DNA of 64,000 nt from Thermoplasmata archaeon (GCA_023269235.1 JAHFTW010000001.1:43548-107547); one strand, 5' to 3'; shown: positions 9,320-53,375, counted from the stretch's first letter. Program-made: numbers and translations. Notes: generated from the letters alone by a model not told the origin.

Positions 9320-9325
9320 CGCGGT

Positions 9326-9670: not shown

Positions 9671-13695
<4,025 letters not shown>

Positions 13696-22562: not shown

Positions 22563-22620
22563 GGTTCCGGGCCGGAAAGTGCGCGCGTGGCAAGCCAAGT
22601 TTCTTCACCCGAGCACGGCC

Positions 22621-24042
22621 ATGGCCGACCCCATGCCGGACGCCGACGAGACCCCTTCCGGCGACGGCCTGCGCCGCGAGCTCAACCTCTTCGGCGCGGT
22701 CTCGATGATCGTCGGCATCGTCATCGGCTCCGGCATCTTCCTGGGCGTCAACCGCGTCGCGGCCGGCGCCGGCTCGCCGTGGCTCATCGCGCTGGCCTGG
22801 GTGCTCGGCGGCGCGCTGACGCTCATGGGCGCGCTCACCTACGCGGAGCTGGGGGTCATCTTCCCGCGCGCCGGCGGCGCGTACGTCTTCATCCGCGAGA
22901 GCATCGGACGCTTCCCCGCGTTCCTGCTCGGCTGGACGACCTTCACCGTCAACCTTGCCGGCTCCGCCGCCGCCTTGGCCGTCGTCTTCGCGGCGCAGCT
23001 CAACGTCCTCAAGCCCGGCGGCTTCGGGCCCATCTGGCCTGATCATCCCGACTGGTCCATCAAGGCGACCGCGGCATGCCTCATCCTCCTCGTCGCCATC
23101 ATCAACTACTTCGGCCTGCGCCTCGGCGGCAACGTGCAGAAGGGCTTCACGGTCCTCAAGGGAGGCCTCATGGTGTTCCTCGCCGTCGCGGCCCTCGCGT
23201 ACACAGGACCCCAGGCCGTCGCGCCGATGGGCGCGGCCGCGGCCGACCGCGTCACCGAGCACGGCTTCGACTTTGCCGGATTCTTCGGCCTCGCCATGGT
23301 CGCGGTCTTCTTCGCCTACGACGGCTGGACGAACGTCGCCACCGTGGGCTCCGAAATCAAGGACCCCGCCCGCAACCTGCCGCGCGCCATGCTGTTCGGC
23401 GTCCTCGGCGTCCTCGTGCTCTACCTCTCCGTCTCGTTCGGCTACTTGCACGTCCTCGGCTTCGACGGCTTCGCCAACTCGCAGCGCACCGTGGCGAGCG
23501 ACGCCGCGCATGTGCTGTTCGGCAACCTCGGCCAGGGCCTCGTCGCCGCCGTCATCCTCGTCTCCGTGCTCGGCAGCCTCAACGGCATCACCATCTCGGG
23601 GCCGCGCTTCTACTACGCCATGGCGCGCGACGGCCTCTTCCCGCGCCTCTTCGGCGAGGTGAACCGCCACCACGTCCCGGCCCACTCCATCTGGGGCCAG
23701 GCCGGCCTCGCCATCCTGTTCCTGCTCTTCCTGGACTTCGACCAGCTCACGGGCAGCATCGTCTTCGTCTCGTTCTTCTTCTACGCCCTCGCCGCCGTGG
23801 GCCTGCTCGTGCTGCGCCGCACGCGCCCGGACCTGCCGCGCCCCTACAAGGTGCCCGGCTACCCGGTCGTGCCCATCCTGTACATCGTGGGCAGCGTCTC
23901 GTTCTCGCTCTACCAGCTCTACCTCGCGGTGACGGACTTTGCCCACGCGGGTTACCTGCTCGCGAGCGTCGCCATCGTGGCCGCCGGCGTCCCAGTGTAC
24001 TTGTATTATCGGCGGCGCGGCGCCGCAGTGGACAAGGCCTGA
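22621..24042 (+). CDS. APC-superfamily amino acid permease
   Basis: 12 TM helices. N-terminal GAVSMIVGIVIGSGIF signature. Confidence 0.85.
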   Translation: MADPMPDADETPSGDGLRRELNLFGAVSMIVGIVIGSGIFLGVNRVAAGAGSPWLIALAWVLGGALTLMGALTYAELGVIFPRAGGAYVFIRESIGRFPAFLLGWTTFTVNLAGSAAALAVVFAAQLNVLKPGGFGPIWPDHPDWSIKATAACLILLVAIINYFGLRLGGNVQKGFTVLKGGLMVFLAVAALAYTGPQAVAPMGAAAADRVTEHGFDFAGFFGLAMVAVFFAYDGWTNVATVGSEIKDPARNLPRAMLFGVLGVLVLYLSVSFGYLHVLGFDGFANSQRTVASDAAHVLFGNLGQGLVAAVILVSVLGSLNGITISGPRFYYAMARDGLFPRLFGEVNRHHVPAHSIWGQAGLAILFLLFLDFDQLTGSIVFVSFFFYALAAVGLLVLRRTRPDLPRPYKVPGYPVVPILYIVGSVSFSLYQLYLAVTDFAHAGYLLASVAIVAAGVPVYLYYRRRGAAVDKA

Positions 24043-24847: not shown

Positions 24848-26509
24848 GTGCAGGACCTGCGCGTGGCCCAGGCCTTGGCGGCGGCCGCCTACGACGCGTG
24901 GCGCGGCATCCAGGCCCGCAGCGACCTGCACGAGAAGGTCGGCAAAGGCGCGGGCGGCAACGCCACGAGCCGCGCCGACGCGGTCCTGGAGGCCGCCATC
25001 TTGGAAGCCGCAAAGCCGTTCGGGATGAGCGTGCTCTCGGAAGAGGCCGGCTTCGTGAAAGGGGACGGCCCGCTCCTTGCGGTCGTGGACCCGCTGGACG
25101 GGTCCCGCAACGCCGGCCGCGGCATCCCGTTCCACTGCACGAGTGTTGCCGTCGGCCCCGCGACCGGCCGCCTCGGCGACCTACGCGCCGGTGTCGTGCG
25201 CAACCTCGTCACCGGCGACCTGTACGAGGCCACCAAAGGGGGCGGCGCGCTTCTCAACGGCAAGGCCATCGCCCCGCGGCCGTTCGACAGCAAGGAGTTC
25301 CTCCTGGGGACCATCGCCGACTACGCCGAGGCCGAGATCGAGGAGGCACACCGACGCCCCGGCCGCCACATCCGCGACCTCGGCTCGGCCGCGCTTGAGA
25401 TGTGCCTTGTCGGCACTGGCGCCCTCGACGCCTTCCATGTCCGCAAGCCGTGGCTGCGGGTCATCGACATCGCCGCCGCCACGCTTGTCGTGCGCGAGGC
25501 CGGCGGCCAGGTCCTCGACCCGGCGACGGGCCGCGACCTGGACATGCCGCTCAACCTCGAGGTCCGCAGCGGCATCCTCGCGACGCACAGCGCGGGGGCC
25601 CGCAAGGTCCTCCTCGGCTCCGTGACGCCGAAACCCATGCCGGGCCTCGCCGGCGCTCCCTCCAATCCGAGCGGACCCCTCACCTGGGCCCTCGTCGGGA
25701 AGGCCGGCATCCCGCACGTCCGCTCCGAATCGGTCCGGTTGCGCGAGAACCTGGAGAAGAAGGGCCAGGCCGTCCTGCTGGAGACCGACCTCGCGAAGGC
25801 GCTCGGCGGCAAGGCCCACTCGCTCGCCGAGCTCGACCAGCTGGCCGACCTCTTCCTCACCGTCGGCGGCGACGGGACCATCCTGATGACGCAGGCCGTG
25901 ACCGACAAGCCGGTCTTCGGCGTCAACGCTGGAGCCATCGGGTTCCTCGCGGAGGTGGAGCCGCCGCAGGCGGTCGCGGCCATCGACCAGATCCTGCGCG
26001 GCGACTACCGCGTCGAGGAGCGCGACAAGCTCTCCGCGTGGCTCGACGGCAAGCCGCTGCCCGACGCCACGAACGAGGTCACCCTGCAGACCTCGCGCAT
26101 CGCCAAGCTCATCCGGTTCCGCATCAGCGTGAGCGGGGAGGTCCTGGACACACTGCGCGGCGACGGCATCATCGTCAGCACCGCCACCGGCAGCACCGGC
26201 TACGCGATGAGCGTCGGCGGCCCCCTCGTCCACCCGCTCGTGCACGGCACTGTCCTCGCGCCCATTGCTCCGTTCCGCCTCTCCGCGCGGCCATGGGTCG
26301 TCCCGTCGGAGTCCGTGATCGAGCTGACATTGGAGGACCGCGAGTCGCAGACGGGCACCGGCCAGGCGCGCGTCGTGGTGGACGGCCAGCATGGCTTCGA
26401 CGTCGAGCCCGGCCAGGTCGTGCGCGTGGCGCCCTCCACCCGCAAGGCGCGTTTCATCCGGCTCGGCCCCGGCTTCTACGAGCGTGTGCGCTCCAAGCTG
26501 ACGCGGTGA
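24848..26509 (+). CDS. nadK: Bifunctional NADP phosphatase (IMPase/FBPase fold) / NAD+ kinase
   Basis: N-terminal IMPase motifs (VVDPLDGSRNAGRGIP). C-terminal NAD kinase GGDGT (TVGGDGTILM) and NEVTL. Same architecture as the M. jannaschii fusion. Confidence 0.85.
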   Translation: MQDLRVAQALAAAAYDAWRGIQARSDLHEKVGKGAGGNATSRADAVLEAAILEAAKPFGMSVLSEEAGFVKGDGPLLAVVDPLDGSRNAGRGIPFHCTSVAVGPATGRLGDLRAGVVRNLVTGDLYEATKGGGALLNGKAIAPRPFDSKEFLLGTIADYAEAEIEEAHRRPGRHIRDLGSAALEMCLVGTGALDAFHVRKPWLRVIDIAAATLVVREAGGQVLDPATGRDLDMPLNLEVRSGILATHSAGARKVLLGSVTPKPMPGLAGAPSNPSGPLTWALVGKAGIPHVRSESVRLRENLEKKGQAVLLETDLAKALGGKAHSLAELDQLADLFLTVGGDGTILMTQAVTDKPVFGVNAGAIGFLAEVEPPQAVAAIDQILRGDYRVEERDKLSAWLDGKPLPDATNEVTLQTSRIAKLIRFRISVSGEVLDTLRGDGIIVSTATGSTGYAMSVGGPLVHPLVHGTVLAPIAPFRLSARPWVVPSESVIELTLEDRESQTGTGQARVVVDGQHGFDVEPGQVVRVAPSTRKARFIRLGPGFYERVRSKLTR

Positions 26510-26512: not shown

Positions 26513-27061
26513 ATGGGCTTCCTCGGCTTCGGGCGGAAGAAGCGGCGCGAGTACGTCGTGCGCGCCAATTTCATGGATCTCCCCGAGGAAGAGTGGACCG
26601 ACGACGAGTTCGACCACTGGCTCGCCACGTGCCCCGAGGACGAGTACTGGGCCTACTGGGAGGACTGGAGCCGCGCCACCGTCGATCACCCCACGGTGCG
26701 CTCCATCCGGCAGAGCGTCCTCGACCTCGCCCGCGCCGCCGCCGCCTCCAGCCACCCGCAGGAGTTCGGCGCCATGATGCGGCTCAAGGGCGACACCATC
26801 ACCGAACTCGTCCTGCTCCCCATCGTGCAGGGCGACGCGCACACCATCCTCTACACGCACCGGCTCCCGGTGGACCGCACCATCCGGGGGACGCTGCACA
26901 GCCACCCGAGCCCGCACCCGTACCCGTCGGACGCGGACTTCGAGTTCTTCGAGAGCCAAGGCGTCATCCACGTCATCCTCGGCTCCCCCTACGGCCCGGA
27001 TGACTGGCGCGCGTACGGTCACGACGGCCAGCCTGTCAGCCTCCGCGTGGTGGACGGATGA
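26513..27061 (+). CDS. JAMM/MPN+ metalloprotease-domain protein
   Basis: HSHPSPHPYPSDAD matches the JAMM motif HxHx7Sx2D, with an upstream Glu (PQEFGAMM). Stop overlaps the next start (ATGA). Confidence 0.65.
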   Translation: MGFLGFGRKKRREYVVRANFMDLPEEEWTDDEFDHWLATCPEDEYWAYWEDWSRATVDHPTVRSIRQSVLDLARAAAASSHPQEFGAMMRLKGDTITELVLLPIVQGDAHTILYTHRLPVDRTIRGTLHSHPSPHPYPSDADFEFFESQGVIHVILGSPYGPDDWRAYGHDGQPVSLRVVDG

Positions 27062-28044
27062 CTGAACTGGACCCGAGCCTCCTCGCCGCCGGCCTCTTCG
27101 CCCCCGTCGTCGTGTGGGTCCTTTGGCGCGGCCAGACGGTGAGCGTCGAGCTGCTGCGCACGCGCCTGCTGGTCCTGACGCGGCACAAGGACCAGGCGTG
27201 GGTCTACGCCATCGTGAGCTGGTTCGGGACGTTCCTGCACGAGGTCAGCCACGCCCTTGTCCTCCTCCTCAGCGGCCACGGCATCAAGCAGTTCCGCGCC
27301 GGCGTCGAGAAGGGCCACGTCACCCCCGCGACGATGCGCAAAGGCCCCGTCTCGTTCCTGTTCTTCCTCGTCGCGGCCCTTGCGCCGCTGTTCCTCCCCC
27401 CGCTCCTGGTCCTCGTCCTCCTGGCGGTCTTCCTCGACCCTGGCCTCTTCACGTTCGCGCACGGCGGTCCCGGCCTCCAGGTCGCTTGGGACCTCCTGGT
27501 CTCCTTCGGCATGGACTTCCCGCTCCGGCTCGTGCGCGACCTTGGCGACCTCGACCTCGCGAGGCCAGCCCACCTCGGCGTCCTCGCCGCCGTCCTGCTC
27601 GGCATCCCCGGCGCGCGCCCGAGCCACGTCAAGAGCCGCTGGCATGGCCCCGAGGGCGACATCGCGGTGCTCCGGGCCCGCATCCGCGAGAACCCGCTCC
27701 CGTTCGTGGCGTTCTTGCTCATCCTCTACCTGGCCTCGTTTCTCACCCTTGTCTGGCCCGAGGCGTACTGGGTCCCGCTCCAGGCGGTCTGGGCGATGGC
27801 CATCGCCGGCATCGTCCTCGCCCTCTTCGGGAGCCTGTGGTGGAGCCTCGCCGGCCTCGACGGGCGCGTGACGCCCTGGCTCGCCTGGCTCGGGCCCGCC
27901 AGCTTCGTCGCCGTCCAGGTCGCCGCCCGCGTCGTCGCCCTTCCCGCAGGCACGACCTTTCTTCAGGTCAACCTGGCGAGCCTCGCGGCCTGGCTGCTCG
28001 TGGCCCTCGTCCTGGGCGCCGTGGCGCGCCGGTCGAAGGGTTAA
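27058..28044 (+). CDS. M50/site-2-protease-like intramembrane metalloprotease
   Basis: HEVSHAL in a TM helix (HExxH) and a C-terminal LAGLDGR (LDG motif). Polytopic. Confidence 0.55.
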   Translation: MTELDPSLLAAGLFAPVVVWVLWRGQTVSVELLRTRLLVLTRHKDQAWVYAIVSWFGTFLHEVSHALVLLLSGHGIKQFRAGVEKGHVTPATMRKGPVSFLFFLVAALAPLFLPPLLVLVLLAVFLDPGLFTFAHGGPGLQVAWDLLVSFGMDFPLRLVRDLGDLDLARPAHLGVLAAVLLGIPGARPSHVKSRWHGPEGDIAVLRARIRENPLPFVAFLLILYLASFLTLVWPEAYWVPLQAVWAMAIAGIVLALFGSLWWSLAGLDGRVTPWLAWLGPASFVAVQVAARVVALPAGTTFLQVNLASLAAWLLVALVLGAVARRSKG

Positions 28045-28062: not shown

Positions 28063-28812
28063 GTGCGCCTGATGGGCGTGCTGATGCTGCCGGGCGAGCG
28101 CGAGGTGGTCCGCCTCCGGCCGACCACTCTCTCCAACCCGTGGGTCCACGTCGGCGCCCTCGGTCTGGGCCTATGGGCCTTGGTCCTCCAGGCGCTCTTC
28201 TCCTCCCGGTCTTGGCTGGAGACGAAGGTCGTGTGGTGGCAGCCCTGGACCTGGTTCGTCGCCAACGATCTCGCCGCCCACTTCTGGGCCGCCACGGCCC
28301 CCGTCGGGGTCGGCCTCGCGCTCGGCCTTCTCGCCCACAAGCGCCTGGGGCTCTGGCTCGCGGTCGGCTCCGCCATCGGCGCCAGCCTCGTCACGCTCCT
28401 GCTCGCCATCCCTGCCGCGCAGGGGCTCCCGGTCTCCGTCGCGGCGATGGCCGTCCTGGTCCTCGTCTTCGCCGAGCTGCGACGCCGCTCGCAGCACTTG
28501 GCCGTCACCACGCTGCGCCTCGTCGCCTGGCAGGAGTTCCCGCGCCGCCGGGAATGGACGGCCCGCCATGCCGACCTGGTGGACCTGGAGCTCCGGCAGG
28601 GCGCCCTCGCCCGCGGCCTCGGCACCGGCACGCTCGTCGCCGTCCAAGGCGACGGCTCGCGCACCCTCTTCTGCAACGTCGCGCGGGCCTCCCGCGTCCG
28701 CACGCTTGCCGAGGCGCTCGTGCGCCAGGCCACCGCGACACCCTACCTGCGCGAGAGCCAGGACCTCGACCGCCAGGTCGCGGATGCCCTCGCGGCCTTG
28801 CAGCGCCGCTGA
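28063..28812 (+). CDS. Membrane protein with C-terminal PH-like (bPH_2/YdbT-like) domain, putative
   Basis: Two or three N-terminal TM helices followed by a soluble domain. The assignment is weak. Confidence 0.35.
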   Translation: MRLMGVLMLPGEREVVRLRPTTLSNPWVHVGALGLGLWALVLQALFSSRSWLETKVVWWQPWTWFVANDLAAHFWAATAPVGVGLALGLLAHKRLGLWLAVGSAIGASLVTLLLAIPAAQGLPVSVAAMAVLVLVFAELRRRSQHLAVTTLRLVAWQEFPRRREWTARHADLVDLELRQGALARGLGTGTLVAVQGDGSRTLFCNVARASRVRTLAEALVRQATATPYLRESQDLDRQVADALAALQRR

Positions 28813-28881
28813 AGCAAGCCTCATCCTCCCCTGCGCGGTCGAAGCGCCGTGGCCATCGTCCGTTGCTTGCGCAACGGAGAA

Positions 28882-29211
28882 ATGCCACCCCCGGCTCCGA
28901 CGGGCGTGGCCTTCTGCGGCAACTGCAAGAGCCTCGTCTACCCCGTGGGCGGGAAGCTCTCGTGCAAGAAGTGCGGCTGGAGCTCGGACGGACCGGCCGC
29001 CGCCAACGTCGTGCGCACCGCCGCGTCAGGCACCAAGCGCGTCGTGCTGGAGAAGAAGGAGGAGGCGCGCCCCCTCCAGACGACGACCTGCCCGAAGTGC
29101 TCCCACGACCGCGCCTACTTCCACCTCATGCAGACGCGGCGCTCGGACGAACCGCCGACGCAGATCAACGAGTGCGAAGCGTGTCATCACTCGTGGCGCG
29201 ACTACGGATGA
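28882..29211 (+). CDS. tfs: Transcription factor S (TFS) / RNA polymerase subunit M-like
   Basis: N-terminal Zn ribbon CGNC...CKKCGW and C-terminal CPKCSHDRAYFHLMQTRRSDEPPT...CEACHH (TFIIS-type ribbon with acidic hairpin). Start chosen at the ATG after the ggag RBS; the longer ORF has a GTG at 28849. Confidence 0.8.
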   Translation: MPPPAPTGVAFCGNCKSLVYPVGGKLSCKKCGWSSDGPAAANVVRTAASGTKRVVLEKKEEARPLQTTTCPKCSHDRAYFHLMQTRRSDEPPTQINECEACHHSWRDYG

Positions 29212-29284: not shown

Positions 29285-30133
29285 TCAGGGCCCAGCGGCC
29301 GTGAAGTTCGGGTCGGGCGGCTGGAGATAAAACGCGGTGAAGATGGCCTCGAAGTCCTGGTCGAAGGCGAAGGCGGCTCCGGCCCCGGCCTCGAGCTCGT
29401 CGAGGTTGGCCCCGACGCTCCACGTGACCCGGACCGTTCCCCCGCCCGAGTAGTATTTCTTGCTCGCGGCCTGGCCCACCACGACACGAAGAATGCTGCC
29501 TCCCTGCGCGGCCGCGAGCAGCGTGTCCTTGTCCCCGAAGCCGACCGTTTCCACGGTGGCGTTGAGATACTGCGCAAGCGGTGTCCGCGGTGCCCAGGAC
29601 GTCTCGAGGACGACTCCAGCCAGGTCCCCGTTGACCTGGAACTCCGCGACACGCTGGCTCACCCCCGTGTTGACGCCCTGGACGCTGCTGCAGTCGCGCA
29701 CATCGGCCCCGCCGCTGGTCTCGACGTCGGCCTCGCACACGATGAACCCCTTGAACTTCTGCGACACCGCGTAGGGTTTCGAGGAAGGGACAGGGTCGAG
29801 CGTGAAGTTGAGGAGGGTCGAGTTGCCGACCGAGACGCTCACGGCCTTGCCGCGCGGCAGGAAGCCCTTGGCCTCGACGACGACCACGAGCGGGACCTGG
29901 GCAGGGAGGCTTGGGAAGGCGAAGCGGCCATCGTTGCCCGACGTGGCTGTCGCGTTGGCGCTAGCGATGGTCACCTTGGCCCCCACCACCGGGCGCACTC
30001 CCGAGTCCACGATGTAGCCCTGGAGCATCGGGAACTCGTCTGACCCGGCCGCAGGGCCGGTGGACTCCGCCGGCCCGGAGCAACCCGCCAGCAGCAACAG
30101 GACCGGGATGGCGAACGCGAGGGCACCGCGCAT
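29285..30133 (-). CDS. Secreted lipoprotein with carboxypeptidase-regulatory-like (CarbopepD_reg) beta-sandwich domain
   Basis: Lipobox LLAGCSG, then GYIVDSGVRPVVGAKVTI...TSGNDGRFAF. Paralogous to the next gene. Confidence 0.6.
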   Translation of the reverse strand: MRGALAFAIPVLLLLAGCSGPAESTGPAAGSDEFPMLQGYIVDSGVRPVVGAKVTIASANATATSGNDGRFAFPSLPAQVPLVVVVEAKGFLPRGKAVSVSVGNSTLLNFTLDPVPSSKPYAVSQKFKGFIVCEADVETSGGADVRDCSSVQGVNTGVSQRVAEFQVNGDLAGVVLETSWAPRTPLAQYLNATVETVGFGDKDTLLAAAQGGSILRVVVGQAASKKYYSGGGTVRVTWSVGANLDELEAGAGAAFAFDQDFEAIFTAFYLQPPDPNFTAAGP

Positions 30134-30179
30134 GCCCGTGCCGCGCCCGCGAGCCGTGGAGGCCGAGGTGAAGCCGGCG

Positions 30180-31028
30180 TCAAGCCTTGGTGATGGTGTA
30201 GTCGGGTGGGGGCGGGGCGACATAGAAGAGGCTCGCGAAGGCGTCCACTTGCTGCTCGAACGCGAACCCGGCGCCAGCGGCCACCTCGTTCGCGTCGTTG
30301 TTGGGGTCCACCCGCACGGTGAGCTTCATCACGCCGCCGGGGGTGTAGTATTTCTGGGCCGTCGCCTGGGGGACGGTGAGCCGCAGCGGCGACGTGGAGA
30401 CCCCCTCGGCGAGGATGACGTTGAGCTGGCCCAGGTTGAGGGTCTCCAGGCGCGCGCTGAGCGCGGACTCCAGCGGGGACTGGGCCGTCCAGGCCAGCTC
30501 GAGGACGACGCCCGCCAGGTCCGGGCCGACGGCGATCTCCCATTGGTCCCTGCTCGCGGATTCGATGCCCGTTCCTGAGCTGCAGTCGTACGTGGAGTTC
30601 TGGCCGGACACCTCCGTCGCGACCTGGCAGGCGATGAACAGGGTCTGCGGGAGCTTCTGCATGAAGGGGGTCTTCGACGAGATGGGCTCCATGGTGAAGT
30701 TCAGCCGCACCGTGGACTGGGTCGGGACGCTGACCTGCTTCGACAGGGGCGTGAAACCATCCTTGGTCGCTACGAGGAGCAGAACGCGGTCCACGGGCAA
30801 GTCGGTGAACGCGTAGTGGCCGCTCGCGTCCGTCGTCGCCGTGGCGTTGGTGTCCAGCACCCGCACGTGAACGTCCTTCATCGGGACGATGCCAGGATCC
30901 AGGACGTAGCCGGACAGAAGCGGCGTCCCGGGTGGGACCCCTGCGTCTGACGCGCCTGTGCCCGAGTCGGTCTGGCTACAGCCCGCCAACAGCATCAGGG
31001 CGGCGGCCGCGAGGGCGGTCGGTCTCAT
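30180..31028 (-). CDS. Secreted lipoprotein with CarbopepD_reg-like domain (paralog)
   Basis: Lipobox LLAGCSQ, then GYVLDPGIVPMKDVHVRV...TDASGHYAF. ~35-40% identical by eye to the previous gene. Start overlaps the M14 stop. Confidence 0.6.
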   Translation of the reverse strand: MRPTALAAAALMLLAGCSQTDSGTGASDAGVPPGTPLLSGYVLDPGIVPMKDVHVRVLDTNATATTDASGHYAFTDLPVDRVLLLVATKDGFTPLSKQVSVPTQSTVRLNFTMEPISSKTPFMQKLPQTLFIACQVATEVSGQNSTYDCSSGTGIESASRDQWEIAVGPDLAGVVLELAWTAQSPLESALSARLETLNLGQLNVILAEGVSTSPLRLTVPQATAQKYYTPGGVMKLTVRVDPNNDANEVAAGAGFAFEQQVDAFASLFYVAPPPPDYTITKA

Positions 31029-33496
31029 CGCGTGCGGCGCATGGCGACGGCGAGGGCCGCGAGGGCCAGGACGCCGAGGGCCAGCTCGAAGCCGGGGGTT
31101 CCCTTGCCCTGCGAGGAGCTCGCGGCGTGGCTGGCGGCCGCGGCGGCCGGCTCGTTGGGGGTCTGCTGAATGATGCCCTTGTCGTTGATGACGACGGGCG
31201 GGGCTTCGAGCACGTTGCCCCAGTACAGCATGTTGCGCAGAATCTGGTTGCCCGAGTACGTGGTGGCGTAGTGGTCCAGGCCGTAGGGGTGGTAGAACTC
31301 CTCCGTCGGGTCGGGCAACAGCGAGCCGATGAACTGGATCTGGCCCTTGCCGAGCGGGATCTTGCCGAGGCCGACGCCGTTGCCGGCGCAGCGGTCGCTG
31401 ATGCTCGTCGAGCCGCAGGCGATGCCCCAGACGTCGCCGCCGACCTTGCTCAGGGCGTCCGTCTTGACGAACCAGTTGGGGACCGCGTTGGCGCCCGTCT
31501 CGAAGCCGAGCGGGGTAGGCTCGACCGTCTGCTTGACGCCGCCGCGCACGTTGCGGTTGGCCTCGCTCGAGGCGTCCTGGTACTCGTAGAACACGGGCTT
31601 GGAGAGGTCCATCGCCTCGCCGCCCATGTACTGCAGGACGTTGTCCACGGCGCCGGAAGTGACGCCGGCGAGGTCGAGGAACTTGAGCGCCGAGTCGGTG
31701 AGGACGAGGTTGCCGCCGTCTTGGACCCAGCCCTTGATGGCCTCGACCGTCGCGGGGCTGCCGGCGATCTGCTCGATGGCGGAGCCGGGAATGACGAAGG
31801 AGTCGAAGCCGTTCAGCTTGGCGCGGGTGATCTCCTGGGTGGTCGCCTTGACGAGCACGCCCGGCTGGTTGCCGTTGCGCACGTAGGGCTTCAGGTCCTC
31901 CCAGTACTTGGCGGGGCGAGCAACGAAGCCGCCGTTCTTCCCGTAGTCCCACAGGTCGTCGCCGGGGTTCTTGTCGGCCCAGCCGCCGGGGGTCTTCAGG
32001 TTCCCTTTCTCGTCGATGTCGTCCTTGTTCGTGGCGACGAAGGTGGGCTCCAGGTAGAGGGTGCGCTTGCCGTGCGTCTCGAAGCTGATCTTGACGTCGA
32101 GGGCCGCGGCGTCCATGAAGGACTTGACGATCTCGCGCACGATCTTGACGTGGAAGTCGTTGAAGACCTGGCCGGGGCCGTACTGCGAGTCGGTCGTGAT
32201 GTGGTTGTAGGCCAACTCGATGTCGTAGCCAGGCGCGTTGAGGCCGGAGTCCTGGGCGAAGTAGTCGCCGTTGAAGCCGGAGTCAGTGTAGCCGATGGCG
32301 TCGATGACGGTGTAGTACTCGGCGAACTGGCTGGAGCCGGCGTTGGCGAGGGCGCCCTGCGTGAAGCACTCGTTGGCGGCGGTGCAGGCCGTGTTCTCGA
32401 CGTTCTCACCATTCTGGAACAGGTTTTGCCACCCGTCGAAGTGCGGGTCGTCGTTGAGGCGCTGCTTGAGGGTCTCGGCGAGGCGGACGCTGCGCTGCAT
32501 CTCCTGCGGCGTCATGGACGCGGCGGGCATCATGATGGCGCCGAAGTTCTGGTGGTTCAGCATGCCGTGGATGTCGATCGCGTAGCTCCAGGTGATGTTC
32601 TGCGTGAGCATCCAGTTGTAGTAGCCGATGGATTCCGGCTCGCCGACGGGGTCGCGCTGGGGGTTCTGCCAGCCGAGGGTGGGGGCCTGGCGGTTCAAGT
32701 CGACGTTGTGGCCGTTGGTGCGGCAGAAGCCGGGGCCGGCGCCGCAGTAGGGGTCCAGGATGAAGGGAACCTCGTCATGGGCCCATCCGTCCGCGTTGGG
32801 GAACAGGAGGAAGATGCGCATGAAGTCCAGGTAGTCGCGGTACGTGGAGACGTCGCCGCCGGTGGGCTTGGCAAGGGGCGTTGGCATGCCGGCGCCGTTC
32901 TGGACGGTCTCGGCCGCGAAGCCGATTCCCTTCAGGAGATCCTCGAGGACGCGGAAGCCGCCTTCGCGGCCGCCCTTCTCGTTGCCGTGGATGGAGAGCA
33001 TGAACAGCATCGACTGGCGGTTCTCCATTGGGATGGGGGAGTCCTTGTTGGTGATCTCCAGCATGTAGATGGGGAAGCGGACGCGGGCGCTGTCGGCGCA
33101 GCCGGGGCCCGTGGGGCAGCCGCCGACGGAGTCGGAGACATGGTGGACGGTGAGGTACTTCTTGCCCATCTCCGAGTTGGCGAGGTAGTCGAGCGCGGCC
33201 TGGAACTCGAAGTAGGAAACGTAATCGGTGGCTGGCAGGGAGCTGGCGCCCGCGAGCGCGTAGGGGGACCCGGCGGTCGAGAGGGGGCTGGCCTCGGGGA
33301 AGACGCGGCCGGTTGCGGACTCGCACACGCTGGGCATGATGACTGGGGGGACCATCGAGGGGGCGGGGCTGACCGAGCCAAGACAGTAGGGGACCGCCGG
33401 ATTGGCCGCCGCGGGGGTGGGAACAAGCGTGAACACGAAGAGCGCGGCCGCGAGCAGGGCGGGGCCGTTGCGCAGGAGGCGGGAGCCTTCCGACAT
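31025..33496 (-). CDS. Secreted M14-family zinc carboxypeptidase-like protein with PGF-CTERM archaeosortase sorting signal
   Basis: Signal peptide. SIHGNEKGG (M14 HxxE zinc site). C-terminus ...GTPGFELALGVLALAALAVAMRRTR* is PGF plus TM plus a basic tail. Confidence 0.7.
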   Translation of the reverse strand: MSEGSRLLRNGPALLAAALFVFTLVPTPAAANPAVPYCLGSVSPAPSMVPPVIMPSVCESATGRVFPEASPLSTAGSPYALAGASSLPATDYVSYFEFQAALDYLANSEMGKKYLTVHHVSDSVGGCPTGPGCADSARVRFPIYMLEITNKDSPIPMENRQSMLFMLSIHGNEKGGREGGFRVLEDLLKGIGFAAETVQNGAGMPTPLAKPTGGDVSTYRDYLDFMRIFLLFPNADGWAHDEVPFILDPYCGAGPGFCRTNGHNVDLNRQAPTLGWQNPQRDPVGEPESIGYYNWMLTQNITWSYAIDIHGMLNHQNFGAIMMPAASMTPQEMQRSVRLAETLKQRLNDDPHFDGWQNLFQNGENVENTACTAANECFTQGALANAGSSQFAEYYTVIDAIGYTDSGFNGDYFAQDSGLNAPGYDIELAYNHITTDSQYGPGQVFNDFHVKIVREIVKSFMDAAALDVKISFETHGKRTLYLEPTFVATNKDDIDEKGNLKTPGGWADKNPGDDLWDYGKNGGFVARPAKYWEDLKPYVRNGNQPGVLVKATTQEITRAKLNGFDSFVIPGSAIEQIAGSPATVEAIKGWVQDGGNLVLTDSALKFLDLAGVTSGAVDNVLQYMGGEAMDLSKPVFYEYQDASSEANRNVRGGVKQTVEPTPLGFETGANAVPNWFVKTDALSKVGGDVWGIACGSTSISDRCAGNGVGLGKIPLGKGQIQFIGSLLPDPTEEFYHPYGLDHYATTYSGNQILRNMLYWGNVLEAPPVVINDKGIIQQTPNEPAAAAASHAASSSQGKGTPGFELALGVLALAALAVAMRRTR

Positions 33497-33642
33497 AAGG
33501 GCGCGACCCTAGGGGGCCTGTTTAACGTTTGTCGGGCTCGGCTCACCGCAGATTTGCGGGAGGGTCCCACCAGTTGAAGGACGCTGGCGGGCGCAACCCG
33601 CGTGGTCATTCCTGGAATCAGGCGGGAATTCGACGAATCCGT

Positions 33643-33891
33643 TCACCAGAAGTCCGCCGACGCCCCGGACGAGTCCAAAGGGTCCTCGTAGACTTCCTTG
33701 GTCGCCTTGAAGCCGGCGGCCTCGGCGCGGGCCATGAGCGCCTTCGCGCCGGCCTCGTCGGAGACGGGGAACTCGAAGGTGAGCTTCGTGCCCGCCTCGG
33801 ACAGGAGCTTCTTGAAGTTCTCACGGTCCTCCTTGAACAGCTTGGCCGTGGCGTTGTCCTTGCAGACGACGGCGACGCGCAGGGTGGCCAT
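33643..33891 (-). CDS. Small hypothetical protein
   Basis: 82-aa ORF starting MATLRVAVV. No recognised domain. Confidence 0.35.
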   Translation of the reverse strand: MATLRVAVVCKDNATAKLFKEDRENFKKLLSEAGTKLTFEFPVSDEAGAKALMARAEAAGFKATKEVYEDPLDSSGASADFW

Positions 33892-33896: not shown

Positions 33897-34393
<497 letters not shown>

Positions 34394-34397
<4 letters not shown>

Positions 34398-48202: not shown

Positions 48203-50422
48203 CTACAGGAACTCCATCCCGCCGGCGTTGCCGGTGGCGGCCTTCTTGACGGCGGTCTGGCCAAGCTGCTCGGCGAGGCGGTCGTAGTACTTGATGACCT
48301 CCTCGGTCACCGAGCTGCGAACACTGCGGAGCGCCTCCTCGAAGTGGTTCTTGTTGACGATGCGGGCCTTGCGGTCCTCGCGCAGCGCCATGATGGCGGA
48401 CTCGCGACAGAGGCTCTCCAGGTCGGCGCCGACGTAGCCCTTCGTGAGCTTGGCGAGCTCGGCGAGGTCCACGTCCTTGCCGAGCGGCATGCCGGCCGTG
48501 TGGACCTTGAGGATCTGCAGGCGGGCGCCCTCGTCGGGGGCGCTGACCTTGATGACGCGGTCGAAACGGCCGGCACGCAGCAGGCCGGGGTCGATGATGT
48601 CGGGACGGTTGGTGGCGCCGATGATGACGACGCCCTCCATGCCCTCGAGGCCGTCCATGAGCGTCAGGAGCTGGTTGACGATGCTCTCCGTGACGTGGCT
48701 GCCCTCGTAGGCGCCGCGGCGCGGGGCGATGGAGTCGATCTCGTCGAGGAAGACGATGCTCGGGCTTGCCTGTTTCGCCTTCTTGAAGATCTCGCGAATG
48801 GCCTTCTCGGACTCGCCGACCCACTTCGACAGGACCTCGGGGCCCTTGACGCTGAGGAAGTTGGCGCCGGACTGGTTCGCGACCGCCTTGGCAAGAAGGG
48901 TCTTGCCGGTGCCGGGGGGACCGTAGAGCAGGATGCCGCGCGGCGGCTTGATGCCCATGCGGGTGAACGACTCGGGGTCCTCGAGGGGCCACTCGACGGC
49001 CTCCTTGAGCTGCTGCTTGACCTCGGCGAGGCCGCCGACGGTCTCCCAGGTGACGTTGGGGACCTCGACGAGGAACTCGCGCAGGGCCGAGGGGTCCACG
49101 ATCTTGAGGGCGCCCTTGAAGTCGTCCGCGTTGACGTTCATGCGCTCCAGCAGTTCGGCGGGGACCGGCTGGTCAAGGTCAATCTCAGGGAGGAAGCGCC
49201 GGAGCGATTTCATGGCGGCCTCGCGGGCGAGGGCCATCAGGTCGGCGCCGACGAAGCCGTGCGTCTGGTCCGCGAGCGACTCCAGGCTCACGTCCTCCGC
49301 CTTCGGCATGTTGCGCGTCTGGATCATGAGGATCTCGAGGCGGCCCTCCTTGTCGGGGACGCCGATCTCGACCTCGCGGTCGAAGCGGCCAGGGCGGCGG
49401 AGTGCTGGGTCAATGGAGTCAGGGCGGTTGGTGGCGCCGATGACGATGATCTTGCCGCGGCCCTTGAGGCCGTCCATGAGGGTGAGCATCTGGCTCACGA
49501 CGCGGCGCTCGACCTCGCCCTGGACCTCGTCGCGCTTCGGGGCGATAGCGTCCATCTCGTCGATGAAGACGATGCTGGGGGCGTTCTTCTCGGCCTCCTC
49601 GAAGGTCTTGCGCAGGTTCTCCTCGGACTGGCCGTAGAACTTGCTCATGATCTCGGGGCCGTTGATGGTGTAGAACTGCGCGCCGGCCTCGTTGGCGACC
49701 GCCTTGGCGATCATGGTCTTGCCCGTGCCGGGCGGGCCGTGCAGCAGGACGCCCTTGGGCGGGTCGATGCCGAGGCGCTCGAAGAGCTCGGGGTGCTTGA
49801 GGGGCAGCTCGATCATCTCGCGGACGTTCGTGAGGGCCTCGCGCAGGCCGCCGATGTCCTCGTAGCTGATCTGCGAGACGGCGGCGCCGGCGCTGGTGGC
49901 GGCCTCCTCGCTGACCTTGATCTGGGTCTCCTCGTTGATGAGCACGATGCCCTTGGGGTTCGTGCTGATGATGCTGAACGGGAGGGCGTTGCCGAACAGC
50001 GCGATGTTGGGGACGACGACGATGTCGCCCTGGACGCAGGGGCGCTTGAGCAGGCCGCGCTTGGCAAGAGCGTCGATGCCGTCGCCGAACTGAATCTGCT
50101 GGTCCTGGCTGATGGCGGGCGCCAGGGTGACCTGCTTGGCCGGCTTGACATCGGCCTTCTTGATGGCGACCTTGTCGCCGATGCTGACGCCGGCGTTCTT
50201 GCGCGTCAGGTTGTCCACATGGATGATGCCCTTGCCCTCGTCGCCGGGGTGCGAGCGCCAGACGACGGCGGCGGTCGTCTTGTGGCCCTTGATCTCGATG
50301 ATGTCGCCGGGGCTGAGGTTCAGTTCGACGCGGGTCTGGCCGTCGAGGCGGGCACGGCCGTAGGACACGTCCTGCTGGAGGGCCTCGACGACGCGGAGGG
50401 TGGCTTCGGTCTTGGTGGCCAT
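48203..50422 (-). CDS. cdc48: Cdc48/VCP/p97-type AAA+ ATPase (N domain plus two AAA domains)
   Basis: Two Walker A boxes (GPPGTGKT twice), SRH regions, the N-terminal double-psi barrel region and a C-terminal tail. Confidence 0.95.
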
Positions 50423-50586: not shown

Positions 50587-52488
50587 TCAGTTTAGGAAGA
50601 GGGCGAAGCAGATGTAGCTCAGCGCCACCATGACGAAGGCGTGGCGGAGGCCAAGGATGGCCTTGCCCGACCCCATCTGCCCCGCTACGATGCCGTCGCC
50701 CAGCCCCTGCAGGACGGCGGCGAGCAGGTAGAACAGCTGGTAGTCCTGGAGGCTCAGCGTCTGGCCCTTGAGCGCCCCGAACGAGGCCAGCTGGGTCTGG
50801 TTCGCGGCGGCCTGGCTCGCGGCGACAAGCTGTGGCACGAACTGCGCGTACATGATCGAGGCCACGCCGAGGAACACGAGGAAGGTCACGTAGATGACGA
50901 CGGTGTAGAGGCTCATTGAGAGGCGGCGCTCGGTCTCGAGCGTCTTGATCTCGCGCGCGTCGCGGGCGGCCGCGATGAGCACCTCGGTCGTGGAGCCGCC
51001 GGAGCGGTCCGCCTGCAAGATGAGCGTCACCGCGCGCTGGACGAGCGGCGTGCGCACCCGCTCCGCGAAGCGCTGCAGGACCTCCTGGAAGCCGACGTTC
51101 CAGGTCACCTGGTCCGCCATGCGCCGCACCTCGGGCGTGAGCGGCCCGTAGTCGCCGCGCGCCGCCACCGCGATGGCGCTCGCGAGCGTGAGGCCGCCTT
51201 TGTGGCTCGAGGCGATGTCGCGCAGGAAATCCGGGAAGCGCTCCTCAAGCTGCCGGATGCGCTTCTGCTCGCGCGCCGCGTAGAAGCCGTACGGCCCCAG
51301 GGCGACCAGCAGGCCGAGGCAGAAGAAGTGGATCCAGGCGTTGGGTGGCATCCCGAGGAGGCTGTTGCCCGAGAACAGGATGAACGCGGGGACCATCAGA
51401 AGCACCGCGCCGACGGCCGAGCCGCCGAGGAGGAACGCTTCGCGCAGCTTCTTCGCGTCCGTCTTGACCTGGAAGAGCGGCGGCTCCAGCGGCTCCGAGC
51501 GGGCAAGGCGGAAGGCGGCGGCCAGGCTCAGGCCCATCGCCAGGAGAAGGAACCCGAAGACGCCCAGGATGACTGGGTCCTTCGCGACGTCGGCGAAGAC
51601 GCCCACCACCCCAAGGCCGAGGAGGATGAAGAGCAAGAACACCAGCATCAGCAGCGCGAAGGCCGCCAGGATGGGCAGGAAGATGGCGCGGTTTCGGTTG
51701 ATGGCCGGGCCGCCCGCCATGCCGCGGTCGCTGCCGAGGATGGCGCCGATGCTGGGCAGGCTGCGGCTGCGGATGAGCGCAAAGGAGGCCGCCGCACCCG
51801 CGCCGAGGGCGAGGAGCGGGACGTCGGCGTCCTGCGCCCCGCCGCGAAGGCTGAGCCACCCGACGAGGAGCGCGAGGACCGCCACCAGGCTGAGCCCGAG
51901 GAACGTGAGCAACGTGCGCGCCTCGCTGCCCGGGCGCGGAGGGCCTTGGAGCGTGGTCCAGTGCGCGTAGCCGCCGACGCCGAGCAGGATCGCGAGCATC
52001 GCGAGCGCGCCCTTGCCAAGGATCTCGTACGCGAACGGCAGGTGCAGGACCCCGTACCGGGCCGGGAGCGCGAAGCCAAGGACGACGACGGAGAGGATGA
52101 GGAGGACATGCAGCATCAGCGTGGAGATGCGCAACCGCTGGGCGACCTCGAGCTGCCGTGTCCGTTCGCCGGCGTCTTTCGCGCCGTAACGGCGCAACCG
52201 GTCGACGGGGTGTCCCAGGACGGAGCCGACCGCCACCAGGAGGAGACCGGCCGCGAGCAGCAGGCCCATCACCTGGGGCCAGGCGCCTCCGACGGGGACG
52301 GTGAGGCCCGCCGCGCCGACGATGGAGAGGGCGGTGCCGAGGGCTCCGCAAATGAGGGTGGCCAGCTCCAGGCCGGGGTGGGGCTGGGTGGGAGCGGTGG
52401 GAGGGGACACCTCGAGGTCGGGACGGCTCTCAAAGGCTGGCAGGCGCAGGAGCTTCCCGGCGGGGCCGTCGTCGCGTGGGTCCGCCAT
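50587..52488 (-). CDS. TadC/FlaJ-like polytopic membrane protein (T2SS-F domain) of a type IV pilus-like system, with extended N-terminal membrane region
   Basis: T2SSF-like segment FPDFLRDIASSHKGGLTLASAIAVAA. Multiple TM helices. Adjacent to the TadB-like protein and the ATPase. Confidence 0.7.
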   Translation of the reverse strand: MADPRDDGPAGKLLRLPAFESRPDLEVSPPTAPTQPHPGLELATLICGALGTALSIVGAAGLTVPVGGAWPQVMGLLLAAGLLLVAVGSVLGHPVDRLRRYGAKDAGERTRQLEVAQRLRISTLMLHVLLILSVVVLGFALPARYGVLHLPFAYEILGKGALAMLAILLGVGGYAHWTTLQGPPRPGSEARTLLTFLGLSLVAVLALLVGWLSLRGGAQDADVPLLALGAGAAASFALIRSRSLPSIGAILGSDRGMAGGPAINRNRAIFLPILAAFALLMLVFLLFILLGLGVVGVFADVAKDPVILGVFGFLLLAMGLSLAAAFRLARSEPLEPPLFQVKTDAKKLREAFLLGGSAVGAVLLMVPAFILFSGNSLLGMPPNAWIHFFCLGLLVALGPYGFYAAREQKRIRQLEERFPDFLRDIASSHKGGLTLASAIAVAARGDYGPLTPEVRRMADQVTWNVGFQEVLQRFAERVRTPLVQRAVTLILQADRSGGSTTEVLIAAARDAREIKTLETERRLSMSLYTVVIYVTFLVFLGVASIMYAQFVPQLVAASQAAANQTQLASFGALKGQTLSLQDYQLFYLLAAVLQGLGDGIVAGQMGSGKAILGLRHAFVMVALSYICFALFLN

Positions 52489-52489
52489 G

Positions 52490-53374
52490 CTAGGCCTCCG
52501 GGGTCATGACCTTGATCGTCCACGCGAAGCCCGCCTGGGCCATCGGGATGAGGACGAAAATCAGGAGGTAGCCGATGAGCAGGTTGTCGCCCCCGGAGCC
52601 GCCAAACGTGGTCATGACGGAGAGGATGACGATGAGGAAGAGCGGCGCGGCGACGACGACGGTGACGAACGCCTCGGCGAGCACGCCCAGCCCTTCGAGG
52701 AACTTGCGCTGTTCCTGGCGGTTGTCAAGGAGGTATTGGTCGGCCTTGTCGGAGAAGTACGTCTTGAGGTCGCCGCCCGAGGTGAGCGCCGTCACGGCGC
52801 CCTGCAGGAAGTCCTGGAACTTCGTGCTGGGGCTGCGGTCAATGGCGCGCGCCAGGGCGCCCATGATGTCCTGGCCCAGGACCCGCAGGTCGCGCACGAT
52901 CCAGGCGCATTCTTGCGCGACCTCGCCATAGAGCGGCTGCGCGGCGAGGCCGGCGAAGAGCTGCTCCGGCGTCGCTCCCGCGGAGGCCATGGTCGAGATG
53001 TAGTTCAGCGCGTACGGCAGCTTGGCGTTGAGGCCCCGGCTGCGGTTGAGGGTGCGCAAGTCGGGAAGGATGATGGCGGAGAGGTACACCATGATGGCGA
53101 GCACCACCGGTGCTGGCACGAGGAAGATGAACAGGCCCGCCGGGATGCTCGCGAGGCCGGTGAGGCTGGCGAGGATTAGGACGAGGACGGGGATGAGAGC
53201 AAGCAGCCCCGCCAGAGCCGCCGTGAGGTAGGCCGAGGCGAGGTACACCTCGGGCCGCAGCAGGATGTGGGCGCGCTCGAGCGCGAGGCGCAGGTGGGCG
53301 TTCTGGCTCGCCGCGCGTGTGGCGAGCGGCCCGAACCAGCGGTACCCGAGGCGCTCGAGGCTGCGCAGCGCCAT
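52490..53374 (-). CDS. TadB-like membrane protein (T2SS-F domain)
   Basis: Soluble helical segment between TM hairpins (LPYALNYISTMASAGATPEQLF). Start chosen at MALRSLERLGY, 1 nt after the ATPase stop. The longer ORF (to 53449) would overlap the ATPase by 74 nt. Confidence 0.6.
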   Translation of the reverse strand: MALRSLERLGYRWFGPLATRAASQNAHLRLALERAHILLRPEVYLASAYLTAALAGLLALIPVLVLILASLTGLASIPAGLFIFLVPAPVVLAIMVYLSAIILPDLRTLNRSRGLNAKLPYALNYISTMASAGATPEQLFAGLAAQPLYGEVAQECAWIVRDLRVLGQDIMGALARAIDRSPSTKFQDFLQGAVTALTSGGDLKTYFSDKADQYLLDNRQEQRKFLEGLGVLAEAFVTVVVAAPLFLIVILSVMTTFGGSGGDNLLIGYLLIFVLIPMAQAGFAWTIKVMTPEA

Positions 53375-53375
53375 G

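Follow-up and report, generated by a model that had tools for sequence, protein, structure and literature searches.

An M14-type carboxypeptidase gene with two adjacent lipoprotein genes in a Thermoplasmata archaeon: a candidate cell-surface proteolytic module

Described systems and layout of the locus

The M14 metallocarboxypeptidases (MEROPS M14, PF00246) comprise A/B/T-type enzymes and the N/E subfamily with CPD, CPE, CPM, and CPN. The enzyme described here shares with them the HxxE...H zinc motif and has probable counterparts of the substrate-binding N-R pair, Tyr248, and Glu270. CPM and CPD are extracellular or membrane-attached, as is predicted for this enzyme. In the animal carboxypeptidases D, E, M, and N, a transthyretin-like domain is fused to the catalytic domain, and in CPD (PF13620; PDB 1qmu, 5aq0) it lies on the C-terminal side; we know of no function for it, even in CPD. 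The PGF-CTERM/ArtA substrates (TIGR04126) of Haloferax volcanii and other Euryarchaeota are secreted surface proteins with a low-complexity linker followed by P-G-F, a hydrophobic helix, and a basic cluster, as in this enzyme. The non-catalytic ThuA-like, DUF4350, and GATase1-like domains (PDB 1t0b, 4jqs, 2gk3, 3rht; IFT52 GIFT domain) are the nearest known to its second domain; to our knowledge, no M14-ThuA fusion has been described. The two small proteins resemble archaeal lipoproteins lipidated by AliA/AliB in that a short Sec-type signal leads into a canonical [LVI][ASTVI][GAS]C lipobox. Hong et al. (2025, PMC12462473) reported AliA (arCOG02177) to be present in Euryarchaeota and characterised it in Haloferax volcanii only.

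The window analysed was a 64,000-nucleotide stretch of DNA from an uncultured soil or groundwater archaeon of the Thermoplasmatota. Three minus-strand open reading frames were found where a sequence-only reading of the window had placed them. The features are as follows:

33514..33530, minus strand: possible archaeal TATA-like box (AAACGTTAAACAGG), read from the sequence
31025..33496, minus strand: enzyme gene, 823 aa, M14-like metallocarboxypeptidase, predicted to be C-terminally anchored (open reading frame; stop codon 31025-31027)
33404..33496, minus strand: predicted Sec signal peptide, aa 1-31 (MSEGSRLLRNGP), with a hydrophobic core and PAAA|N cleavage, by inspection
32102..33229, minus strand: M14 catalytic domain, about aa 90-465; zinc ligands H170, E173, and H310; predicted substrate-binding N268, R269, and Y403; putative R127 equivalent R259; predicted catalytic E427
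31202..31909, minus strand: putative ThuA/DUF4350-like domain of the class I glutamine-amidotransferase-type fold, about aa 530-765, without conserved Cys or His
31028..31102, minus strand: PGF-CTERM-like tripartite signal, aa 799-823 (GTPGF, hydrophobic span, RRTR), by motif and profile scores
30180..31028, minus strand: lipoprotein 1 gene, 282 aa (open reading frame; start overlaps the enzyme stop); lipobox LLAGC (Cys17), transthyretin-like CarboxypepD_reg domain at aa 38-114, lineage-specific beta-sandwich at about aa 118-282
29285..30133, minus strand: lipoprotein 2 gene, 282 aa (open reading frame and calls in other assemblies); same architecture, lipobox LLAGC (Cys18)

The enzyme TGA (31027-31025) is overlapped by the ATG of lipoprotein 1 (31028-31026), and the translational coupling through ATGA proposed earlier thus has its start/stop overlap in the sequence. 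A gap of 46 nt separates lipoproteins 1 and 2. The start of lipoprotein 2 is most likely the ATG at 30133 rather than the ORF-maximal start at 30223. Lengths of 823, 282, and 282 aa were also called independently in two other assemblies of the same sequence. GC content at the third codon position was 0.95 in the enzyme gene and 0.86 in the stop-to-stop frame holding lipoprotein 2, as is usual for real genes in a genome of 70% GC such as this one. The centre of the TATA-like box lies, by eye, about 27 nt upstream of the enzyme ATG; with low confidence, such a box would point to a leaderless mRNA spanning all three genes, which probably make up a single operon.

The enzyme and its C-terminal tail

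A total of 167 homologues of the enzyme were found, and those with a named source were labelled Thermoplasmatota or carried older euryarchaeal names. The assignment to M14-like zinc carboxypeptidases was backed by the fold and by conserved catalytic residues. SIHGNEKGG is present as quoted in the earlier reading (aa 168-176), and its HGNE aligns to H69/E72 of carboxypeptidase A (CPA). The MAFFT alignment placed H170, E173, and H310 on CPA H69, E72, and H196, consistent with an HxxE...H zinc site, and N268, R269, and Y403 on N144, R145, and Y248; the numbering of the CPA reference was correct at 9/9 key residues including H69, E72, and H196. In HMMER alignments, D-I-H-G fell on the His196 motif in both CPD and CPA. 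The correspondence of E427 (DIELAY) to CPA E270 (TFELRD) and of R259 (CRTNG) to R127 is a motif reading only, the segment being displaced by four residues in the MAFFT alignment. H170, E173, R259, N268, R269, H310, Y403, and E427 were invariant in an alignment of 51 sequences with identity down to 38%. The HGNExxGRE motif resembles that of the N/E subfamily.

The Peptidase_M14 HMM proposed as a check gave 14.2 bits for the 823-aa protein (PF00246; gathering cutoff 21.6; E 0.034), below the gathering score. PF00246 was matched by 36 of the 51 aligned relatives (E below 0.01; best 5.4e-13). PDB entries for CPD, CPA, CPN, and CPM were matched by the enzyme family profile (E 0.004-0.04). The AF2 model (pLDDT 87.5) showed the carboxypeptidase alpha/beta fold, and Foldseek matched it to CPN, CPM, and CPA (E values from 4.5e-10 upwards); MpaA, Csd4, and cytosolic carboxypeptidases were also among the structural matches. 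The results supported the identification of the enzyme, by fold and conserved catalytic residues, as an M14-type zinc carboxypeptidase, with activity and substrate both predicted.

The enzyme differs from known M14 members in several respects. Identity is only 12-20%. An A/B-type pro-domain was not recognised at the N-terminus, and the transthyretin-like domain is not fused to the enzyme. A long, family-specific helical insertion lies at about aa 330-375, between His196 and Tyr248 in CPA numbering. The residue at specificity position 255 is small (Gly410; Ser in the distant clade). The polypeptide also contains a putative ThuA-like domain and has a sorting signal of archaeal type at its C-terminus. 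On present evidence, the enzyme is not assignable to M14 subfamily A, B, C, or D.

The putative ThuA/DUF4350-like domain makes up nearly one third of the enzyme and was absent from the sequence-only reading. Across the 51 aligned sequences, the stretch aa 470-790 contains no invariant Cys or His; therefore, the domain is probably non-catalytic. It differs from the nearest known domains in lacking the Cys-His-Glu triad of true amidotransferases, in being fused to a peptidase, and in its predicted export.

The Sec-type signal peptide noted earlier was likewise predicted by inspection, and the AF2 model has a low-confidence helix in this region (aa 11-23). The enzyme contains ten Cys, close in sequence as five pairs. 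An extracellular location is probable, favoured by the predicted signal sequence, the Cys pairs, and the conserved C-terminal tail.

The tail had been described as a textbook PGF-CTERM signal. The quoted sequence GTPGFELALGVLALAALAVAMRRTR is present, and the tail, read as GTPGF-ELALGVLALAALAVAM-RRTR after an Ala/Ser-rich linker, has the tripartite layout of P-G-F, hydrophobic helix, and basic residues; the word textbook did not hold, as TIGR04126 scored below its cutoff. The isolated tail gave 18.8-20.2 bits against a cutoff of 24.5, and the full-length enzyme gave no match to this model. PGF-CTERM substrates also differ in their Thr-rich linker, and the signature of the enzyme family is degenerate: [ST]-P-[GA]-[FLV], followed by a hydrophobic or transmembrane span and RRRR. 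PF18204 was matched by 1 of 51 relatives.

These scores bear on a tentative alternative, to which we give a real but lesser chance: the tail may be a mere stop-transfer transmembrane anchor or the signal of another sorting enzyme, and would then be neither an ArtA substrate nor a site of lipid anchoring. Three other sorting-signal models scored in a similar range on the isolated tail, among them Heimdall-CTERM (21.9-22.8 bits; cutoff 24) slightly above TIGR04126 and MYXO-CTERM at up to 18.8 bits (cutoff 20), and some relatives are labelled MYXO-CTERM by JGI. Among the 120 relatives listed, PGF occurred in only 15, and PGL (28), PGV (12), PAL (11), PGA (11), and PAA were common; in 18, the final 35 residues lacked such a P-[GAS]-x motif, in some cases because the sequence is truncated. 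The multi-pass membrane proteins tested, both in the window and in the fetched related loci, included no archaeosortase, but this search covered only about 64 kb of the genome. Against the alternative, P801 is invariant in the 51-sequence alignment, and a [ST]-P-[GA]-hydrophobic motif stands directly before the transmembrane span and the Arg cluster, the arrangement seen in archaeosortase and exosortase signals.

The lipoproteins and their linkage to the enzyme

Both small proteins carry LLAGC where the N-terminal signal peptide ends, in agreement with their earlier description as lipoproteins and with the archaeal lipobox pattern. L14-A15-G16-C17 was invariant in eight lipoprotein sequences. 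The lipobox was found in at least 109 of 122 full-length representatives of the family; most of the other 13 have a T-[AS]-G-C variant outside the search pattern. Lipidation of the two proteins is a prediction from the lipobox.

Two further claims about the lipoproteins also held. Both begin with a carboxypeptidase-regulatory-like domain (PF13620, 51.0 and 52.5 bits; gathering 32.3) with a seven-strand beta-sandwich fold, and the two are paralogous (39% identity over 278 aa, E 1e-56). The best match of the transthyretin-like domain was that of carboxypeptidase D. Here, the domain belongs to a separate polypeptide, predicted to be lipid-anchored, whose gene adjoins that of the enzyme, and it precedes an uncharacterised beta-sandwich of about 165 aa. 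Many unrelated surface proteins also have CarboxypepD_reg domains, so that the idea of a domain supplied in trans may reflect coincidence. The second domain, present in both lipoproteins and absent from the earlier reading, is lineage-restricted: 178 clusters were found in 1.84 billion proteins, almost confined to the 270-300-aa lipoprotein architecture. The lipoprotein model was of moderate confidence (pLDDT 68).

Loci with an enzyme at least 45% identical and with downstream DNA present numbered 23, and in 23/23 one to three family lipoproteins lay directly downstream; a separate look-up found four in tandem after the enzyme gene in one relative. The downstream start lay -3 to +6 nt from the enzyme stop in the nine loci with a placeable start. 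The neighbourhood is syntenic among relatives, in the order cyclophilin, an 82-aa gene, enzyme, lipoproteins, and TFS or S10/EF-1alpha. The gene set is conserved in the Thermoplasmatota lineage, and the pairing of enzyme and lipoproteins is strongly conserved. Gene stoichiometry varies, with one or two enzyme genes and one to four lipoprotein genes, and most of the distant relatives (about 35% identity) had no detectable family lipoprotein downstream of the enzyme; therefore, the partnership is neither obligatory nor 1:1.

Proposed function and rival readings

The locus looks like an ordinary protein-digesting module, probably with the enzyme at the cell surface. Our main reading, with a probability of about 0.55, is a cell-surface proteolytic module in which an active M14 enzyme would trim peptides and the lipoproteins would be its accessory subunits. 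The enzyme would be exported by the Sec pathway and fold into an active zinc M14 domain and a non-catalytic ThuA/DUF4350-like domain. The PGF-CTERM-like signal would hold it at the membrane, either by the transmembrane helix itself or by a lipid added after archaeosortase-type processing. There it would cut C-terminal residues off extracellular peptides, and the freed amino acids may feed uptake and catabolism. Both lipoproteins would be lipid-anchored at the N-terminus through the lipobox cysteine and may bind, position, or modulate the enzyme. The earlier proposal of a peptide-scavenging set with binding or regulatory partners is therefore plausible. The amino-acid permease and beta-oxidation genes cited for it are present in the window, and in one relative an M28 peptidase gene comes directly after the lipoproteins; the link to nutrition is weak, since the cluster adjoins housekeeping genes (cyclophilin, TFS) and not transporters.

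The accessory role of the lipoproteins has a competitor, which we consider rather unlikely: the carboxypeptidase is real, and the lipoproteins are independent surface proteins, such as adhesins or envelope or S-layer-associated glycoproteins, that share only a transcript and a conserved position with it. An invariant NFT sequon and further N-glycosylation sequons in the lipoproteins, the variable copy number of 1 to 4, and divergent relatives standing away from any M14 gene agree with such independence, and synteny of the whole neighbourhood means that linkage could be plain vertical inheritance. However, the overlap or gap of at most 6 nt persists in relatives down to about 53-55% identity, the pairing is kept throughout the near-clade loci, and the beta-sandwich domain is nearly limited to the enzyme-linked context. 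The nutritional role of the enzyme would fall if it acted on the cell's own envelope, on C-termini of surface glycoproteins or on envelope polymers, with the lipoproteins as substrates, chaperones, or inhibitors. We regard this as improbable: no specific substrate candidate was found, nothing inhibitor-like was seen in the lipoprotein fold, and we know of no peptidoglycan in Thermoplasmatota. Peptidase genes near relatives' loci (M28 and S8 in one; S9/S15 in another) and the window permease fit nutrition slightly better. In its favour, the cluster belongs to the vertically inherited core genome and adjoins housekeeping genes rather than sitting in a transporter or peptidase island, the M14 members MpaA, Csd4, and cytosolic carboxypeptidases process envelope or proteins, and the ThuA/GIFT-like fold has been proposed to bind glycans.

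A bolder form of the proteolytic module is improbable in our estimation. The enzyme and lipoproteins would form a dedicated two-anchor surface complex, in which the transthyretin-like domain is supplied in trans by an expandable paralogue set that tunes substrate choice or activity. If true, one Thermoplasmatota lineage would have its own "split" regulatory carboxypeptidase, in which C-terminal (archaeosortase-type) and N-terminal (lipobox) lipid anchoring cooperate within one operon. It would also offer a first clue to what the transthyretin-like domain, long unexplained, does.

Organization of the three-gene unit

The GC content was ~70% across the whole window. Three ORFs running in the same direction occupied positions 33496 to 29285 of the minus strand, encoding a large M14-like protein (the enzyme) and two lipoproteins. 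The unit and its flanks were arranged as follows.

33897–34397: cyclophilin gene, upstream flank of the unit
33646–33891 (−): 82-aa ORF (MATLRVAVVCKDNATAKLFKEDREN...), between the cyclophilin and carboxypeptidase genes
33496–31025 (−): enzyme gene, 823-aa ORF
31028–30180 (−): lipoprotein 1 gene, start ATG at 31028–31026, 282 aa
30133–29285 (−): lipoprotein 2 gene, start ATG at 30133, 282 aa (312 aa from 30223 in the ORF listing)
28849–29211: TFS-type zinc-ribbon gene, convergent, downstream flank of the unit

The start codon of the enzyme was secure because only four codons separated its ATG from an upstream in-frame stop. The ATG of lipoprotein 1 overlapped the TGA of the enzyme gene (31027–31025), which confirmed the ATGA coupling described in the sequence-only reading. 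For lipoprotein 2, the start at ATG 30133 gave a canonical signal peptide (MRGALAFAIPVLLLLAGC) and a length equal to that of its paralogue and in agreement with homologues. Two further public assemblies with an identical protein carried gene calls of 823, 282, and 282 aa together with the upstream 82-aa gene. Third-position GC was 0.95 in the enzyme gene and 0.86 in the ORF containing lipoprotein 2, indicating that the ORFs were genuine genes. With the cyclophilin and 82-aa genes upstream and the convergent TFS-type gene downstream, the three genes formed a self-contained unit. The unit was preceded by a 146-nt gap, in which an AT-rich box ~27 nt before the enzyme ATG might be the TATA box of a leaderless transcript. 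A bacterial promoter and terminator scan was uninformative, the host being archaeal.

The 82-aa ORF had no Pfam match and no signal peptide by inspection. A gene of 79–82 aa occupied the equivalent position in five loci fetched from relatives (L001, L002, L004, L005, and L057). Other genes were observed on the plus strand beyond the downstream flank. A protein with six TM segments, an HExxH motif, and only weak Peptidase_M50B/DUF3267 matches (27058–28044) adjoined a 249-aa membrane protein without a family match (28063–28812), and genes of similar size and order followed a JAB-domain gene in L001. A 553-aa fusion of an inositol-monophosphatase-family protein and NAD kinase was encoded at 24848–26509 (+); the same fusion was syntenic in L001.

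Catalytic domain and probable surface anchoring of the enzyme

The enzyme had been proposed to be an M14 carboxypeptidase. In the 823-aa protein, a Peptidase_M14 match was present but below threshold (14.2 versus 21.6 bits, E 0.034), and comparison of the single sequence with solved structures gave noise only, so that a family profile was needed. A total of 167 homologues were found; those with a source name were labelled Thermoplasmatota or carried older names such as Halobacteriales and Euryarchaeota. The more distant homologues (35–45% identity) had a precomputed PF00246 match, and PF00246 was matched by 36 of 51 aligned relatives, with a best E of 5.4e-13. The profile of the 51-sequence alignment, searched against the PDB, recovered CPD, CPA, CPN, CPM, MpaA, and CPB2 with E 0.004–0.3. 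This search aligned D-L-N-R of the enzyme to the Asn144/Arg145 motif and D-I-H-G to the His196 motif.

Eight residues were noted as invariant in the 51-sequence alignment: H170, E173, R259, N268, R269, H310, Y403, and E427. In a MAFFT alignment with bovine CPA, His69, Glu72, Asn144, Arg145, His196, and Tyr248 corresponded to H170, E173, N268, R269, H310, and Y403, respectively, and the specificity residue Ile255 was aligned with Gly410. In the CPA sequence used, nine of nine key residues carried the expected textbook numbering. Two further CPA residues, Glu270 and Arg127, were matched to the invariant E427 (in DIELAY) and R259 by motif reading only. The relatives, the profile search, the invariant residues, and the CPA alignment agreed on the M14 assignment, and the HGNE site, whose failure to align had been named beforehand as grounds for refutation, did align to the M14 zinc ligands. 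Three methods differed in how they ranked A-type, T-type, and N/E-type enzymes, so that no one M14 subfamily was favoured. The M14 domain had a helical insertion at ~aa 330–375, and the N-terminal extension had no meaningful Pfam match. The ten cysteines of the enzyme lay near one another in sequence as five pairs, consistent with export. The results suggested, with a probability of roughly 0.8, that the enzyme is an exported, membrane-tethered, and catalytically competent zinc carboxypeptidase. A 739-aa ORF at 48203–50422, considered as a second enzyme paralogue in the window, was rejected because it encoded a Cdc48-type AAA ATPase.

A ThuA/DUF4350-like domain (aa ~530–765) had been overlooked in the sequence-only reading. 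DUF4350 was matched by 10 of the 51 relatives and ThuA by two, while the match of the 823-aa protein alone had an E of 0.12. Assignment of the C-terminal half as an amidotransferase was rejected, as no Cys or His was conserved; for the same reason, the domain is probably structural. By analogy with related domains, it may serve in oligomerisation or glycan binding.

The C-terminal tail of the enzyme (GTPGF-ELALGVLALAALAVAM-RRTR) had the tripartite layout of archaeosortase/exosortase signals. It had been called a textbook PGF-CTERM tail, a label that the score did not bear out. An NCBIfam scan of the whole 823-aa protein with TIGR04126 gave no PGF-CTERM match, and the isolated tail reached 18.8–20.2 bits against a cutoff of 24.5. 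With other models, the isolated tail scored 21.9–22.8 bits for Heimdall-CTERM (cutoff 24) and up to 18.8 for MYXO-CTERM. The motif in relatives was [ST]-P-[GA]-[FLV] with an invariant Pro; among the 120 relatives listed, the variants included PGL (28), PGF (15), PGV (12), PAL (11), and PGA (11). The motif was followed by ~18–20 hydrophobic residues and then RRR[RW]. By these sequence features, the tail is a PGF-CTERM-like signal typical of the lineage rather than a textbook one.

No archaeosortase was found among ten membrane or secreted proteins of the 64-kb window, a set that took in its multi-pass proteins of a size expected for an archaeosortase, or among three proteins of related loci. 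The multi-pass proteins scanned in the window and fetched loci were ArlJ/FlaJ-like, UbiA-like, a TatA fusion, or without a known family. A literature search found no statement about ArtA in this Thermoplasmatota lineage.

Further loci were observed in the window. An assembly locus of the archaeal type IV pilus or archaellum kind spanned 50587–60307 (−) and included the following genes.

50587–52488 (−): ArlJ/FlaJ/UpsF-like membrane protein
52490–53449 (−): ArlJ/FlaJ/UpsF-like membrane protein
53376–55370 (−): T2SSE-type ATPase

This locus also encoded three large proteins, each with one hydrophobic segment at the N-terminus; that at 58031–60307 (−) had a sub-threshold match to an archaellin/pilin N-terminal domain. 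Two proteins with UbiA/MenA-type prenyltransferase matches and long N-terminal extensions (2816–4174 and 7475–9319, both +) flanked a 12-TM protein (~5136–7826). Receiver-domain-like sequence was seen by eye in two very large proteins, near the C-terminus at 9667–13695 (−) and as ...RILIVEDN at 61324–64000 (+), where the window edge cut the protein off; these may be hybrid sensor kinases.

The lipoprotein family and its pairing with the enzyme

The two lipoproteins were paralogous, as had been proposed, with 39% identity over 278 residues (E 1e-56), and in both the CarboxypepD_reg domain exceeded the Pfam cutoff. Each began with a short signal of the Sec type, which ended in LLAGC and had no twin arginine. 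The C-terminal ~165-aa region of both had no Pfam match. Within the family, the cysteine pair Cys134/Cys149 and the sequon N110-F111-T112 were invariant and a second sequon, NAT, around residue 61 was mostly conserved, which suggests N-glycosylation and a disulfide. A word-indexed homologue search returned 8 proteins only, but an exhaustive HMM search and a locus scan showed that the family was larger. Of 1.84 billion proteins searched, the HMM of the C-terminal domain picked out only 178 representative clusters, nearly all of 270–300 aa with the domain equally placed. A lipobox was present in at least 109 of 122 full-length representatives, and most others had a T-[AS]-G-C variant.

The gene order common to the homologue contexts was cyclophilin, an 80-aa gene, one or two enzyme genes, and then one or two lipoprotein genes. 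A species-representative genome scan gave 48 loci, and HMMs of the enzyme and both lipoprotein domains were run on 53 fetched loci and the window. Among loci that had downstream sequence and an enzyme sharing 45% or more identity with the query, 23 of 23 carried one to three family lipoproteins directly downstream; two of these loci duplicated ones fetched earlier. The lipoprotein start was −3 to +6 nt from the enzyme stop in the nine loci with a placeable start. On a metagenomic contig (L055, 1–3896), four tandem family lipoproteins came after a 3′-terminal fragment of an M14-ThuA gene (...TPALGLVALLAALAAVAIARRRR*). Two paralogous M14-ThuA copies stood in tandem in L002 (3472–8499), L014 (1470–6701), and L032 (5042–9540).

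In the distant clade (~35% identity), most loci had no detectable family lipoprotein; L035 and L037 had one each. A different 184-aa lipoprotein was found in L003 and L031 of this clade, and that downstream of the enzyme relative in L003 had no meaningful Pfam match. In L030 (1293–8268), two paralogous enzyme genes flanked two lipoproteins of opposite orientation that had the CarboxypepD_reg domain only. Divergent lipoprotein relatives were also found away from any M14 gene. Given the constant pairing in the near clade, its absence from most distant-clade loci, the stand-alone relatives, and the variable copy number, the partnership is a strong association that is specific to one clade and flexible in its stoichiometry.

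Whether the lipoproteins physically partner the enzyme stood at about even odds. In its favour were the close, conserved coupling of the genes and the narrow distribution of the second lipoprotein domain; calling for caution, copy number was variable and this kind of beta-sandwich is common in surface proteins. CPD, CPE, CPM, and CPN carry a transthyretin-like domain in fusion with the catalytic domain, whereas the enzyme here had none and the coupled lipoprotein carried one. The contrast is appealing but speculative.

Proposed role and significance

The enzyme had been placed in a heterotrophic setting, and an amino-acid permease gene (22579–24042) and beta-oxidation enzymes were indeed present in the window. 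These genes, together with a gene after the lipoproteins in one relative, made it plausible that the enzyme trims extracellular peptides for uptake. In that relative (L004), a Peptidase_M28 (aminopeptidase-type) gene lay directly after two lipoproteins (9276–10301) and an S8 peptidase gene was found a few kb upstream, weakly supporting a proteolysis neighbourhood. However, the immediate neighbours of the unit were housekeeping genes and the operon had no transporter, which left the trimming role evenly balanced.

Each component is of a known class: an M14 peptidase, a transthyretin-like domain, a ThuA-like fold, a lipobox, and a PGF-CTERM-like signal. As far as can be told, the combination is new: M14 and ThuA-like domains fused in one protein that has a sorting signal at its C-terminus, together with a dedicated lipoprotein family that has an unmodelled domain. 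A literature search returned general work on Thermoplasmatota peptidases and archaeal lipoproteins and nothing on this enzyme or lipoprotein family.

Detrital protein is widely inferred to sustain the Thermoplasmatota that inhabit soils, aquifers, and sediments. To our knowledge, almost all of their surface proteases are annotated as hypothetical, and "hypothetical protein" was the label of 28 of the 35 enzyme relatives with any source name. The enzyme family can now be given a defensible annotation as M14 carboxypeptidases that carry a ThuA-like domain and are anchored at the C-terminus, and a partner lipoprotein family was defined whose second domain has no Pfam model. The finding is not surprising and does not overturn current understanding; its use lies in annotation and as a small model of archaeal surface anchoring. 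Being compact, the unit could serve to test two-route surface anchoring in archaea and what the transthyretin-like domain does in carboxypeptidases.
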